A DNA stretch of 61,354 bases from a virus: positions 1 through 61,354 of IMG/VR virus record IMGVR_UViG_3300028841_000043; one strand, 5' to 3'. A model generated the notes under the pieces. The model saw only the letters and a program-made list of their open reading frames with translations, did no database searches and was not told the DNA's origin. A program made the position numbers and the translations under genes. Each line of letters starts with the position of its first letter. Positions within the stretch are counted from its first letter, which is position 1. Positions 56,364 to 60,359 of this stretch are shown one piece after another.

Positions 56364-56381
56364 GCCTAATTGGCGTTGGGC
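56364..56381. repeat. attC-like core remnant (GCCTAAT-tggc-GTTGGGC) at the distal end of the cassette-like array
   Basis: GTTGGGC at 56375-56381 encodes the C-terminal TPN of gene 56366-56686. No convincing partner arm was found. Confidence 0.3.
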
Positions 56382-56686
56382 GTCTTGCTGCGCGCCAAGG
56401 TTGCCAGCGCCAGCACTTCGCCGGCCTTGACCAGTTTTGCCAGCCGCTCCGCTTCGTCGGTGTCGTCCGGGTCTACCGTGTCCAGCACCTTCAGCGCTTC
56501 CACAATCCAGACGCTCGCCGCGCCAAGATGGCCGCGCAGGGCCATCGCTTCGGATTCGGCTTCGCAACGCCGCTTCACTTCATCGCAGTGCGTGCACCCG
56601 GGCATGTAGAAGTCGCTGCCGCAGTTCGGGCAGCACTCAGGCACATCCTGCTGTTCGGGCGGGTCGCCAAAGGCTTCTCTGCTCAT
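56366..56686 (-). CDS. Zinc-ribbon small protein, paralogue of 58998-59342
   Basis: ATG at 56686 lies behind GGAGGTG and overlaps the upstream stop. The ORF reads MSREAFGDPPEQQDVPECCPNCG...CTHCD...WIVEALKVLDTV...LARSKTPNAN. Confidence 0.6.
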   Translation of the reverse strand: MSREAFGDPPEQQDVPECCPNCGSDFYMPGCTHCDEVKRRCEAESEAMALRGHLGAASVWIVEALKVLDTVDPDDTDEAERLAKLVKAGEVLALATLARSKTPNAN

Positions 56687-57297
56687 CCAATCCACCTCCA
56701 TTTGCCGCCAATCAGGTCATCGCCCACGGGTTGCGCGGTTCGGCCTGGTCGGCTATGCCACATCGCGGCGCTTCCGCCCGCGTCCTCTTTGTCGAGCCTG
56801 AATCCAGCGGCTCGCAAGCTGGCGCCGCCCTCGTCGGGCAGCGTGTACGTGTAGATCGGCGCATGACCCATCGCGCGGGCAGCCTTGCGCGCAGCTCCGT
56901 AGAGCATGCTGCAAGCGTTCGGCGTGCCATCGGTGCACAGGCGCGTGATCTCGCACGCGCGCCCATCGTCAAGGCGCGGCGCTACAGGTCGGCCCACGAT
57001 GGCAACGCCAACGATGCAATCCATGTGCATGCCGTAGCCAGCGCCACCGGGTCGCGCGTCGCCAATCGGCACTCGGGCCGCCACGGCTACCGCGAACTTG
57101 TGGCCCACCACCGGCCGGCTGTGCCTGTGCAGCCGGCGCACGAACTCGTTTGCAGTCTTCAGGTCGCACGGCACCACCTGCAGGGCAACGCTTTCGCGCT
57201 CAGGCACGAGACGCCCAACCCCTCGCTCAACCGGACCAGCCACAGCGGGCCGGTGGTTGGCTGCGGTCGGTGCGGTCATCGTGTCGTCGGTGCTCAT
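56683..57297 (-). CDS. XF1762-family (GNAT-like) protein; N-terminal ~40 codons may be untranslated attC-like sequence
   Basis: The core ANEFVRRLHRHSRPVVGHKFAVAV...IVGVAIVGRPVAPRLDDGRACEITRLCTDGTPNACSMLYGAARKAARAMG matches the XF1762 family pattern. This is from memory. Confidence 0.6.
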   Translation of the reverse strand: MSTDDTMTAPTAANHRPAVAGPVERGVGRLVPERESVALQVVPCDLKTANEFVRRLHRHSRPVVGHKFAVAVAARVPIGDARPGGAGYGMHMDCIVGVAIVGRPVAPRLDDGRACEITRLCTDGTPNACSMLYGAARKAARAMGHAPIYTYTLPDEGGASLRAAGFRLDKEDAGGSAAMWHSRPGRTAQPVGDDLIGGKWRWIG

Positions 57298-57333
57298 CGC
57301 GCTGTGTCAGTCCGGTTAGCTCGAACGTTAGGC
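57213..57333. repeat. attC-like element C5 (121 bp): GCCCAAC-CCCTCGCTCAACCGGA...TCCGGTTAGCTCGAAC-GTTAGGC
   Basis: Roughly 23-nt imperfect inverted arms end in RYYYAAC/GTTRRRY-type cores. The minus-strand GCCTAAC supplies the TAA stop of gene 57328-57624. Confidence 0.45.
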
Positions 57334-57624
57334 AGCATCAAGCCGCCCGCGCAGCGCTGCCATTGCCTTCTGCACATGCCATGCCGTACTTCCTGGCTTC
57401 GCCTTCTTGGTGCTCGGGAACAGCTTGGCACCCAGCTCGTCCAGGTACTCGCTGGAGAATTGCAGCGCCTCCAAAGCCTGCCGCATCAACGCCTCGTCGC
57501 TTTCAATCATGCTGGCCGCGCACACAGGGCAAACGTGCGAGCGACGGCGCTTTGTCGTGCTGCATGGGTCGGCGCAAAGCGATTGACACGGCTCGCCGCC
57601 GATAGGGCAGTAGTCGGGCCTCAT
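57328..57624 (-). CDS. Hypothetical Cys-rich protein
   Basis: Track ORF of 98 aa with coding-like composition. Confidence 0.5.
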   Translation of the reverse strand: MRPDYCPIGGEPCQSLCADPCSTTKRRRSHVCPVCAASMIESDEALMRQALEALQFSSEYLDELGAKLFPSTKKAKPGSTAWHVQKAMAALRGRLDAA

Positions 57625-57944
57625 GCCTTGGCCCCGCTCCGCTGCTGGCGCGCAAACCGCTCAAGCATCCGCGCTGCAATGGTGCCGTCGTCGCAGTTGT
57701 GCAGCGTCATGGTTGCGCCATTGCGTCCCTCGACGCAGATCGCAAACGCCCGCTTGTCGGCAATCGCCAGCCGCAGCGCAGCGCAGATTTCCTCAAGCCC
57801 TTCCGTGGCGTTGCGCCATCCGGCATAGTGGCCGTCGCGGTAGGCGTACTTCTCGCGGTCGCTGGTGCCGTCCGTCAACCACATGTTGCACGTCTGTTCG
57901 TAAGCCACCTGTTCCTGGTGGTTCGGCGTAAATGGTGCTTTCAC
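57621..57944 (-). CDS. Hypothetical protein
   Basis: Track ORF of 107 aa. It overlaps both neighbours by 4 nt. Confidence 0.5.
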   Translation of the reverse strand: MKAPFTPNHQEQVAYEQTCNMWLTDGTSDREKYAYRDGHYAGWRNATEGLEEICAALRLAIADKRAFAICVEGRNGATMTLHNCDDGTIAARMLERFARQQRSGAKA

Positions 57945-58195
57945 AGTAGCGCCCCCTCGTGTCTGTGCGGGTCTTGCGCGCGGTCAATGGCTTCGAGCAT
58001 CTCGCGCAGTTGTTCGGCCTCGTCGCCGTCCTCGGGGTCAATCGACCGAATCACGCCTGCGGCATCGCCCAGCAGGCCCAGCAGCACAGCGTTCTCACCG
58101 CGCAGCCGCTCAATTTCCTGCGCCGCTTCCTCGCCCACCGTGCCGTCACAGTGATGCGTGCCAATCGTGCGCAGGTTGTGCAGTAGCAAGTCCAT
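57941..58195 (-). CDS. Hypothetical acidic protein (84 aa)
   Basis: ATG at 58195 lies 5 nt after GGAGAA. The ORF reads MDLLLHNLRTIGTHHCDGTVGEEAAQEIERLRGEN.... Confidence 0.5.
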   Translation of the reverse strand: MDLLLHNLRTIGTHHCDGTVGEEAAQEIERLRGENAVLLGLLGDAAGVIRSIDPEDGDEAEQLREMLEAIDRAQDPHRHEGALL

Positions 58196-58214
58196 CTCGT
58201 TCTCCAACAATGCT

Positions 58215-58987: not shown

Positions 58988-59043
58988 GGCTAACTGTTCA
59001 TTCCACCGGACCGCTGCGCGGCCGGTGAATTCCGGCGTTGGGC
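58988..59043. repeat. attC-like element C3 (56 bp)
   Basis: The minus strand reads GCCCAAC GCCGGAATT CACCGGCCGC GCA GCGGtCCGGTG GAATGAACA GTTAGCC. It overlaps the 3' end of 58998-59342. Confidence 0.45.
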
Positions 59044-59342
59044 GTCTTGCTCTGTGCCAGCGTCGTCAATGCCAGCACCTCGCCGGCTTTGATGAGCTTG
59101 CCCAGTTCGTCGGCCTCGGTCGTGTCTTCCGGGCCCAGCGTGTCCAGCACCTTCAGTGCCTCCACGATCCAGCCCGAAACCACGGCATAGCGGCAGCGCA
59201 GCGTGTGCGCTTCGGTTTCGGCCTTGAGCCTGCGCGAGACTTCCTCGCCAAGCTCGCAGCCTTCAGCGTGCCATTCGCCATCGCACACCGGGCAGCGTTG
59301 CGGCTCGGGGTCGGGCGGGTCGCCCCACGCTTCGCGGCTCAT
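58998..59342 (-). CDS. Zinc-ribbon small protein, paralogue of 56366-56686
   Basis: Internal ATG at 59342 overlaps the upstream stop. The ORF reads MSREAWGDPPDPEPQRCPVCDGEWH...WIVEALKVLDTL...LAQSKTPNAGIHRPRSGPVE. Confidence 0.6.
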   Translation of the reverse strand: MSREAWGDPPDPEPQRCPVCDGEWHAEGCELGEEVSRRLKAETEAHTLRCRYAVVSGWIVEALKVLDTLGPEDTTEADELGKLIKAGEVLALTTLAQSKTPNAGIHRPRSGPVE

Positions 59343-59665
59343 ATTTCCACCCCTGGCGCTTCGGCCCAACGCGGCACCGAGGCATTGCAGGTGCCCATGC
59401 CGCGCACCATGTCGGTATCGGCCAACACCTTGCCTCTCACCACGGCCACAAGCTCGAACACCGCGTAGGTGTCGCCCCATCCGGTCTTGCTGGTGCAGGC
59501 CAGCCGCGCGGCTTCCTTCTCCGCTTCCTCGCGGGTGTTGTGCACCAGCGTCGGCCGGTCCTTGGCCGGCACATGCAGGCCCACCGCGCGCTTGCGGTTC
59601 GGGTGCTCCGTCTGGTCTATCCAGTCGTCGCGGTCGGTAACGTTCAACACAATGCACTGCGGCAT
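59339..59665 (-). CDS. Hypothetical protein
   Basis: Track ORF of 108 aa with coding-like composition. Confidence 0.5.
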   Translation of the reverse strand: MPQCIVLNVTDRDDWIDQTEHPNRKRAVGLHVPAKDRPTLVHNTREEAEKEAARLACTSKTGWGDTYAVFELVAVVRGKVLADTDMVRGMGTCNASVPRWAEAPGVEI

Positions 59666-59693
59666 GCCATCGTCCTTTCGTTCTCCACCAGCG

Positions 59694-59747
59694 CCATAAC
59701 CCCTCGCTCAAGCCGACCCTGCGGGCGGCTTAGCTCGAACGTTGGGC
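59694..59747. repeat. attC-like element C4 (54 bp)
   Basis: The minus strand reads GCCCAAC GTTCGAGCT AAGCCGCCC GCA GGGtCGGCTT GAGCGAGGG GTTATGG. It overlaps the 3' end of 59708-60094. Confidence 0.45.
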
Positions 59748-60094
59748 GTCTTCAGCACCTCGTACAGCGGGACCGCGCGCAGCCCCAGCGCTTCCAGCGT
59801 CTCGGCGCTCGGGGCAACCTTCTTGCCGGCCATCAGGCGGCTGATAAAGCTCTTGTCCACGCCGGTCGCGCGCTCAGCAGCCCGCACACCGCCGTGCCGC
59901 TCAACCACTGCGCGGACCGCTTCTTCCAGCGTCACCAGCCGAGGGCGGCGCGGCGCGTTGAAGTCGAGCCCGCGCGCCCTGATCTTGGCGGCGCAAGCGC
60001 CCGGCACGTATCCGCCTTCTCGCTCCGGCTCCAGCCGCCCAACCCCTCGCTCAACCGGAAGCCCAACAGCGGGCTTCGTCGTGTCGTCACTCAT
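59708..60094 (-). CDS. HTH DNA-binding protein (start uncertain)
   Basis: The HTH reads AAERATGVDKSFISRLMAGKKV. The N-terminal PVERGVGRLEPERE is encoded by an attC-like arm also found in 56683-57297. An internal GTG near 60010 behind GAAGGCGGA is an alternative start. Confidence 0.55.
   Translation of the reverse strand: MSDDTTKPAVGLPVERGVGRLEPEREGGYVPGACAAKIRARGLDFNAPRRPRLVTLEEAVRAVVERHGGVRAAERATGVDKSFISRLMAGKKVAPSAETLEALGLRAVPLYEVLKTPNVRAKPPAGSA
60037..60059. repeat. Lone copy of the C5-type left arm (GCCCAAC-CCCTCGCTCAACCGGA)
   Basis: The 23 nt are identical to 57213-57235. No convincing right arm follows; only GTTCACC occurs at 60096. Confidence 0.35.
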
Positions 60095-60359
60095 CGTTCA
60101 CCTCGCGCTGTTGCGGGCCGCGCACCCACACACGCCTGCCGCTCGCAAGCGTGCGCCAGTGCCCGCGCCTTTGGTGCCATCGCGGCGCAGCTCGCATCTT
60201 CCCTGTCTTGGTGACGTAGATATTTAGTTTGTGCTTCGGCGTCGTGACACTGACAACTACCGCGCCTTTCGCAAGTTCCATGCAACGCTCAACCAGGGCG
60301 GAGCCGAACTGGAATCCGTACTGCGTCAATTCACGTCGTACCGTGGTTTGTTCTTCCAT
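60087..60359 (-). CDS. Hypothetical protein
   Basis: Track ORF of 90 aa. Confidence 0.45.
   Translation of the reverse strand: MEEQTTVRRELTQYGFQFGSALVERCMELAKGAVVVSVTTPKHKLNIYVTKTGKMRAAPRWHQRRGHWRTLASGRRVWVRGPQQREVNDE

Follow-up and report, generated by a model that had tools for sequence, protein, structure and literature searches.

In a 61,354 bp phage genome-like contig (IMG/VR record IMGVR_UViG_3300028841_000043; GC 67.6%), here called the window and analysed over its whole length, five imperfect hairpins (C1-C5) are very probably genuine attC sites of the integron type, and the region around them (56363-60118) an attC cluster without integrase in the phage early operon. The array lies between the genes for SSB and the small terminase subunit (terS), where the open reading frame (ORF) list, codon-position GC and independent gene calls place 12 small genes on the minus strand; the independent calls come from 100% identical contigs in three sister metagenomes. 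The array comprises six cassettes, five complete attC sites, a truncated attC at one end and an attI-like core at the other. Its attC top strand is the plus strand of the window and its genes are on the minus strand.

A previous sequence-only reading had described bulged hairpins on the gene-sense (minus) strand at four gene junctions together with a longer fifth element, and all five were found where it had placed them. On the plus strand, they occupy positions 58215-58272 (C1, 58 nt, crossover G58266/T58267, the slash marking the crossover point), 58546-58602 (C2, 57 nt, G58596/T58597), 58988-59043 (C3, 56 nt, G59037/T59038), 59693-59747 (C4, 55 nt, G59741/T59742) and 57213-57333 (C5, a long form of 121 nt, G57327/T57328). 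The elements are restricted to one 3.8-kb stretch, and the heptamers GCCTAAC and GTTAGGC are absent from the rest of the 61 kb outside them. Their lengths (55-121 nt) agree with the ~57-141 bp expected of attC sites. The AAC and GTT triplets are present in all five elements, and the core consensus RYYYAAC/GTTRRRY is matched exactly by both cores of C1, while C2-C5 differ at degenerate positions only. On the plus strand, C1 reads GCCTAAC ACGTC ATT C CAGGCG A CGGCC TAC GGCCG CGCCTG AAT TCCAGC GTTAGGC, corresponding to the R'' box, a 5-nt spacer, the L'' box, an extrahelical C, the stem with an extrahelical A, a triloop, the L' box, a 6-nt spacer and the R' box.

Single-strand DNA folding reproduced the described hairpins, the fold energy being significant for C1 (z -5.1) and C2 (z -3.6) only and not for C3 (z -1.4), C4 (z -1.2) or C5 (z -0.4). 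The single bulged T noted before was seen in the folds; a second bulge had been missed: in C1-C3, a G lies 5-6 bp outward of the T on that arm. Outward of this G on the 3' arm of the minus strand, C1-C3 have a 4-bp L box followed by an unpaired spacer of 4-6 nt, and the region formerly taken as a plain spacer of 8-10 nt is in reality these two parts together. C4 has the same layout by model alignment, with an L box of 3 bp. This arrangement of T and G bulges, L box and spacer is that of the attC bottom strand (Nivina 2016, PMC5027507). C5 is an element of the same type; its terminal loop is long and contains the start codon (ATG) and initial codons of the following 204-aa gene. The GCCTAAC core of C5 includes the TAA stop codon of the 98-aa ORF, and C1 starts 1 nt past a TGA, both in agreement with the earlier description.

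In order to compare the elements with bona fide attC sites, class 1 integron arrays were obtained from plasmids by tblastn with IntI1, and the attC sites read from them. A covariance model (R1) built from six such sites (aadA1, aadB, aadA2, aadA5, blaVIM-2, and aac(6')-29a) was run across the whole window with filters off; a second model (R2) represents the phage-family attC. R1 gave exactly five strong matches, all on the plus strand and all corresponding to C1-C5, with 60.7 bits for C1 (E 5e-17), 46.0 for C3 (E 4.4e-12), 41.9 for C2 (E 9.9e-11), 37.9 for C4 (E 2.2e-9), and 27.4 for C5 (E 7.8e-6; 57.7 bits with R2). The elements thus score as attC with a model made from genuine sites only. 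A detector combining a regular expression with folding for AAC...GTT hairpins was too noisy and was not used. The next R1 match in the window, at 14551-14630 on the plus strand, reached 16.7 bits (E 0.03) and, having neither AAC nor GTT, was rejected as an attC. An imperfect palindrome between GTCTGAC and GTCAGCT, it is located 640 nt downstream of the phage integrase gene, is probably unrelated to attC, and could be an attP-region or terminator structure.

The likeness to class 1 sites extends to the sequence. The aadA2 attC reads GTCTAAC AATTC GTT C AAGCCG A CCGCGC TAC GCGCGG CGGCTT AAC TCCGGC GTTAGAT, and the pairs C1/aadA2 and C2/aadA5 align box for box, including both extrahelical bases and the TAC triloop; C2 is close to the aadA5 site (CAAGCGGACGG..CCGCCGCTTAA). 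The aadA1, aadA2, aadA5, and aadB sites (57-60 bp) have the same box order and spacing as the window sites, namely R'' of 7 nt, a 5-nt spacer, L'' of 3 nt, C, 6 bp, A, a stem of 5-6 bp, the triloop, the mirror arm, a spacer of 5-6 nt and R' of 7 nt. The strings CAAGCGGACGG, CGGCTTA, and TC.AGCGTTAG are common to class 1 and window sites. Two features set them apart. In class 1 cassettes the ORF is on the top strand, upstream of attC, whereas in the window it is on the bottom strand, and the long forms (90-121 nt) of the window and its relatives hold a coding start, unlike class 1 attC sites.

Relatives of the array were gathered in three ways, by the 204-aa gene, by the exact 19-mer of the R''-L'' arm, and by the integron integrase (IntI) of contig L049; classification in IMG/VR is not taken as proof of a virus. 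The first way yielded L001-L004 and L008, with 24 model matches, all antisense to the genes, and the 19-mer led to 31 IMG/VR contigs with 119 matches and 28 bacterial genome contigs with 56. Family members are 52-121 nt long (median 73), with a bimodal distribution. Arrays are located just downstream of gp157 or Sak in L008, L026, L034, and L041, near SSB in L055, and beside terS in L025 and L047, which resembles the situation in the window. In an alignment of 111 attC sites from viral contigs, 94.6% of the cells are paired, with compensatory double changes in 396 cells; none of 500 shuffles reached the observed covariation values, and slid controls collapsed. AAC and GTT are invariant in all 111 sites, and the extrahelical C and A are present in 103 and 109 of them, respectively. 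Within the inner helix, G-U pairs were seen in 0-1 of 109 sites per pair, the covariation being strictly Watson-Crick. This near absence of G-U indicates that pairing is kept on both strands, as for a DNA site and not an element acting only as RNA.

The arm 19-mer also occurred in metagenome-assembled genomes (MAGs) assigned to Chloroflexota, Cyanobacteriota, Saccharibacteria, Verrucomicrobiota, and Bacteroidota (among L056-L083), as well as in an actinomycete chromosome; several of the MAG contigs are short. This cross-phylum distribution could reflect mis-binned phage or integron DNA, a very broad spread of this type of attC or, for loci without a model match, chance. The 1.9-kb Saccharibacteria contig L069 carries a homologue (82% identical) of the 128-aa gene of the window array, adjoining a different attC. 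In the isolate-derived IMG/VR contig L146, a site at 8970-9029 beside intI scored 83.8 bits with the class 1 attC model and probably belongs to an ordinary class 1 integron in or beside a predicted prophage.

At its terS-proximal end, the array is bounded at 56363-56387 (plus strand) by an isolated R' core, GTTGGGC (56375-56381; crossover G56375/T56376), with an attI-like core before it. Where the sequence-only reading had seen a one-armed remnant (56364-56381), one core is indeed kept, and it proved to be this R' preceded by the attI-like core. The boundary sequence, GGCCTAATTGGC/GTTGGGCGTCTTG, resembles the attI junction consensus GGTCGAATTnnn/GTTRRRY upstream of intI in viral contigs, with equal spacing of AATT, 3 nt, and GTT; neither R1 nor R2 gave a match at 56363-56387. 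The boundary may be the relic of an attI core, in which case the probable ancestor of the array would be a complete platform from which intI has been lost. At the SSB-proximal end, a truncated attC (60037-60118, plus strand; R2 15.5 bits, E 0.1) retains the R''-L'' arm and part of the terminal loop, while the L'-R' half is gone. Its 23-mer CCGGTTGAGCGAGGGGTTGGGCG is identical to the C5 arm, and the second remnant listed before, at 60037-60059, keeps one arm as described, this being the R''-L'' arm of the truncated site.

All cassette genes are on the minus strand. Cassette 1 (56376-57327) contains a 111-aa gene (56366-56701) and the 204-aa gene (56683-57297), cassette 2 (57328-58266) three genes of 98 aa (57328-57624), 107 aa (57621-57944), and 84-89 aa (57941-58210), and cassette 3 (58267-58596) an 82-aa gene (58274-58522). 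Cassette 4 (58597-59037) contains a 134-aa gene (58560-58964) with its 3' end running into C2, cassette 5 (59038-59741) a 113-aa gene (58998-59339), paralogous to the 111-aa gene, and a 108-aa gene (59339-59665), and cassette 6 (59742-60094) the 128-aa helix-turn-helix, CII-like gene (59708-60094). No relic attC was detected inside the two- and three-gene cassettes with R2 and filters off. Pfam and PHROG searches left most array proteins without a family, including those of cassette 2. The exceptions are the 128-aa protein, with weak matches to HTH_31 and phrog_725, and the 204-aa protein, which belongs to the Mom-like DNA modification family phrog_1384 (E 1.2e-31) and had no Pfam match. The 204-aa gene has homologues in 11 viral contigs and is the sole cassette gene of the window with many relatives. 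Methyltransferases were found in or beside the arrays of relatives, which, together with the Mom-like gene, suggests an anti-restriction cargo.

The start codon in the loop of C5 is a recurrent feature. An ATG in the loop opens an ORF well past the element in 67 of 107 long forms, vs. 2 of 145 short forms, and the L''-spacer-R'' arm of the long forms is translated in one frame (..PVERGVGRL(E)PER..). Because the arm is read in a fixed frame, otherwise unrelated cassette proteins share an N-terminal leader of ~30 aa (..PAVGxPVERGVGRLEPER..). In the window, this applies to the 204-aa gene (element at 57213-57333) and the 128-aa gene (element at 60037-60094); examples elsewhere include L002 (11127-11243 and 11550-11651) and L008 (7289-7402), as well as many others.

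The window encodes no integron integrase. Its tyrosine integrase of 360 aa (12829-13911) had no match to the integron-integrase models TIGR02249 and NF011946, against which the control IntI1 scored 508 and 799 bits, and no significant similarity to IntI1 itself, while tblastn with IntI1 revealed neither intI nor a relic of it in the window. The absence of intI noted from the sequence thus holds by each of these searches. With no IntI encoded in the window, the region qualifies as a CALIN, a cluster of attC sites lacking an integron integrase, as defined by Cury 2016 (PMC4889954), a term that applies to at least two clustered attC sites on one strand without intI; here, five plus-strand sites lie within 2.5 kb. 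Of the parts of a complete integron, intI and the promoter are absent and only the attI-like core (56363-56381) is present. No sigma-70-like promoter was found in 55500-61354, and a scan for terminators and promoters gave nothing at the elements.

The polarity of the sites is opposite to that of the genes. C1 scored 60.7 bits with R1 on the plus strand and 15.0 bits (E 0.12) on the minus strand, and the tentative earlier call that the gene-sense strand is the bottom strand was therefore right. As the gene-sense strand is the recombinogenic bottom strand, all genes of the array run opposite to those of canonical cassettes, and each cassette has its attC upstream of the gene; the ORFs of the window array are all on the bottom strand, and not on the top strand followed by attC. 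The strand assignment was checked on viral contigs carrying intI. In a first set, 87 of 87 matches are located upstream of intI with the top strand directed away from it, and in a second set 34 of 35 matches are on the same strand as in the first. The GC skew of the top strand is negative in 91 of the 111 viral sites (mean -0.089, reference sites -0.03 to -0.11); a strand asymmetry with a purine-rich bottom strand has been described for attC (Nivina 2016, PMC5027507). Within the viral arrays, 100 ORFs supported by GC content at third codon positions (GC3) are antisense to the attC top strand vs. nine that are sense. The attC arrays at six bacterial MAG loci, including L057, which has intI, contain mostly top-sense ORFs; GC3-based calling failed on these lower-GC bacterial arrays, and a longest-ORF vote was used there.

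Several relatives carry the integrase that is absent from the window. The IntI of L049/L084 scored 446 bits against TIGR02249 (cut-off 265) and is a true integron integrase, and its relatives are encoded by 189 IMG/VR stretches. In the IntI-carrying viral contigs, the junction of attI and first cassette has the form GTTAYGC ... GGTCGAATTnnn/GTTRRRY; the attI of one phage-type IntI contig (L084 or L085) reads GTTATGC...GGTCGAATTGGA/GTTAGGC. The first cassette at attI in L049/L084 begins TTAGGCGTCTTGCGG and is inverted, with a long-form attC containing the gene start. A second integrase and a tail protein are also encoded there. Tail genes were likewise found in L085, L088, and L093, and among these contigs also head genes, a methyltransferase and a ParB-like gene, with a second integrase beside intI in L085 and L093; these three are real prophage-like genomes. 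L049/L084, L085, L088, and L093 all possess intI together with attI, as complete integrons do. In the intI-linked arrays, 65 ORFs are inverted vs. 13 that are not, so that the cassette genes point toward attI and intI.

Among the bacterial relatives, the arm 19-mer was present in two intI-carrying betaproteobacterial MAG contigs, L057, which has a canonical array of nine attC sites, and L067 (a Leptothrix MAG). Their chromosomal integrons have the same exact 19-mer arm as the phage sites and an IntI 59-62% identical to IntI1, and their cassettes contain top-sense ORFs, unlike those of the window. Such betaproteobacterial integrons are a plausible, and likely, source of both recombinase and attC type for the integrase-less array. 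The sequence-only reading had proposed looking for the phage cassettes in integrons of the host clade; none was shared with the bacterial integron arrays that we searched.

Footprints of cassette exchange were observed in related viral contigs. L041 and L042 have in common a two-cassette block of 970 nt (99.8% identical) and, with 100% identity, a cassette of 279 nt; the order and the neighbours of the two differ between the contigs, and all four junctions are at the GTT of R' (..TGGC/GTTGGGCGTCTTG vs. ..GCCC/GTTGGGCGTCTTG and ..CCCACGTT/CGGC vs. ..CCCACGTT/AGGC). The left-hand attC at the block is of a 101-nt form in one contig and of a 61-nt form in the other. Compared with L104, L103 has one additional cassette of 443 nt, inserted exactly at G/TT (..TCTGTCG/TTATGC ... 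CTCTGCG/TTGGAGG..); on its two sides, the contigs are 98.6% and 99.9% identical. When matches with identities of 95% or more were considered, 11 of 33 unique homology ends in or near arrays fell within 3.5 nt of a detected G/TT, where about 0.4 of 33 would be expected by chance according to our own estimate, which assumes one crossover point per ~500-600 nt. The predicted differences in gene content with breakpoints at G/TT thus exist in related viral contigs, though not in the array of the window itself.

That this array still recombines, by which enzyme, and why its genes are inverted, we infer from established integron biology. In a single-stranded state, the attC bottom strand, here the gene-sense strand, would fold into a hairpin in which the R box, an unpaired spacer, the L box and the extrahelical G and T lead up to a terminal loop. 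If provided in trans by a chromosomal integron of the host, a mobile integron or a co-resident IntI-carrying phage, an integron integrase would then cut at the 5'-AA/C-3' of R', and cassettes could be excised, inserted or reordered. Their genes would be expressed by read-through of the phage operon and not from an integron Pc promoter.

Several observations weigh against this interpretation. No recombination was detected in the array of the window, the three sister-sample loci, chosen by their identical terminase, being 100% identical over 5.8-8.4 kb. For the 204-aa gene, similarity to its relatives sets in at the R'' box or at residue 39, not at R', and extends to the stop codon; the gene was accordingly rejected as evidence for IntI-type exchange, and other recombination routes must also shape the arrays. 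Recombination of the homologous or illegitimate kind is also at work, perhaps with the aid of the Sak system of the phage. Several cassettes consist of two or three genes without an internal attC, and the IntI-carrying phages share little else with the window apart from scattered homologues of early genes. Outside the window, the orientation of the genes depends on a compositional ORF call based on GC3. Finally, the aadA type predominates among the six sites from which R1 was built, and the E-values that it gives are approximate.

Of the other explanations, the one that survives best, although we consider it unlikely, is that the elements are linkers for the phage's own homologous recombination, with no involvement of an integron integrase. 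The window does encode Sak and gp157, the 19-23 nt arms are exactly conserved across contigs, and relatives of the 204-aa gene resemble it from the R'' arm onwards and not from R'. Exchange within the arms would, however, produce chimeric attC sites and scattered breakpoints, whereas one attC at the L041/L042 block is identical up to GTT while the neighbouring attC (the 101- and 61-nt forms) is wholly different up to G, and the additional cassette in L103 was inserted precisely at G/TT. Linkers of this kind would also leave the extrahelical bases, the strand asymmetry and the linkage to intI and attI unexplained. Recombination between arms probably contributes alongside site-specific exchange.

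A role of the hairpins in mRNA, which the sequence-only reading had offered as an alternative, seems slightly less probable still. The elements would then serve in RNase III-type processing, as in the early region of T7, as 3' stabilisers or in translational control, and their likeness to attC would be convergent or vestigial. Their sense-strand position at the junctions of a read-through operon without internal promoters or intrinsic terminators is consistent with such a role, and a start codon in the loop of 67 of the 107 long forms could keep initiation accessible. The strictly Watson-Crick inner helices, which pair on both strands, argue against it, as do the invariant AAC and GTT and the conserved extrahelical bases, none of which is needed for RNA folding. 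A purely RNA-level function would furthermore not account for the sequence-level identity to aadA-type attC sites, the G/TT cassette junctions, or the physical association of the sites with intI and attI in related phages, and in Rfam no family matched the elements at E up to 1. A secondary role in RNA may nevertheless accompany the role in DNA. That the elements are selfish palindromes of the repetitive extragenic palindrome (REP), bacterial interspersed mosaic element or miniature inverted-repeat transposable element type, situated in intergenic gaps and with no part in gene exchange, is highly improbable; they are short, GC-rich, imperfect and intergenic, with GTAG around the loop in C1 and C2, but they are confined to 3.8 kb, overlap coding starts and ends, match attC models and stand beside intI and attI in relatives, and an origin of the REP-associated tyrosine transposase (REP/RAYT) type was discarded for want of a conserved GTAG, the loops of C3 and C4 being GCA.

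The window represents a temperate phage, probably of Burkholderiales. Besides the integrase, it encodes the large terminase subunit (53457-55130), terS (55209-55823), SSB (60677-61177), gp157 (770-1267), and the single-strand annealing protein Sak (1264-1938), and a P22-type portal and a capsid gene were called on contigs identical to the window. The nearest named terminase is from Pseudorhodoferax (family Comamonadaceae). A megablast search with 52000-61354 against 50,697 phage records gave zero matches. A single minus-strand ORF of 4448 aa (24091-37437) matches the DarB-like antirestriction family phrog_10089 as well as methyltransferase, helicase, and endolysin-like families, and its product is probably a giant multi-domain protein carried in the virion. 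In the 540-bp gap between terS and the attI-like end of the array, there is a 90-aa gene on the plus strand (55994-56266), which runs toward the array in the direction of the attC top strand; it was also called on the identical contigs and had no family match. The gene upstream of SSB contains an 18-bp tandem repeat, GGCATCGAGGCCGGCGAG, coding for GIEAGE (61315-61354). The window ends inside this repeat, and the identical contig L164 has more copies at 18-nt offsets (3633-3708).

Integrons and CALINs in phages have been reported before (Qi 2023, PMC9892861), with 21 phages and 17 CALINs, and the basic claim is thus already known. In that study, five of six phage attC sites tested were recombined by IntI1 into attI1, and phage cassettes were found to contain DNA-modification genes (methyltransferases); cassette orientation was given only as typical or divergent, and no inverted genes were described. 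The array of the window, a genuine attC array within a lineage-wide inverted variant of the integron, is likewise a CALIN with DNA-modification cargo, but all of its cassette genes are antisense to the top strand, a layout seen also in dozens of viral contigs related to it, many of its attC sites and theirs contain the gene start, an attI-like core closes the array, and relatives carry an intI co-directional with the cassette genes. In the full-text literature, as far as its incomplete coverage allows, we came across no account of phage arrays in which the cassette genes run antisense to attC and in the direction of intI, and the systematic inversion of genes in phage attC arrays appears to be new.

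Other known systems share single features with the array. In sedentary chromosomal integrons, reverse-oriented cassettes are a minority, typically toxin-antitoxin pairs with their own promoters; these are also non-canonical, but what is a minority there is the rule here. In the 'inverted integrase' integrons, such as those of Treponema, intI is flipped, whereas here intI, attI, and attC have the canonical polarity and it is the cassette genes that are turned round. The promoter early stem-loop (PeSL) cassettes of T4-type phages and the linkers of lambdoid phages are likewise short conserved elements at gene boundaries in hyperplastic regions and are thought to shuffle modules. They carry promoters and rely on homologous or illegitimate recombination; the elements described here have attC structure, G/TT junctions, and linkage to IntI.

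Integrons are bacterial gene-capture devices, known for antibiotic resistance genes among others and recently also for anti-phage defence systems. On our estimate, the chances are evenly balanced that temperate phages, apparently of betaproteobacteria, run an integron version of their own, with back-to-front cassettes at the end of the early operon. The platform would consist of intI and attI, or of an integrase-less derivative as in the window, and each attC would precede its gene, often with the start codon in the loop; with the cassettes back to front, the phage promoter would read through the genes toward attI and intI. If this is true, there would be a phage-only cassette pool, apparently enriched in anti-restriction functions (Mom-like proteins and methyltransferases), a counterpart of the anti-phage defence cassettes of bacterial integrons; phage cassettes would be silent in a bacterial integron, and bacterial cassettes silent in a phage. 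The attC sites here organise variable early genes of a phage, and its relatives show phage-borne IntI and footprints of recent insertion and reordering. If confirmed, this would provide a concrete mechanism for part of phage genome mosaicism and would mean that phages use the integron toolkit for accessory genes of their own, probably in anti-defence. It would also challenge the rule that useful cassette genes face away from attI, and the presence of the gene start inside attC bears on the question of how new cassettes arise.

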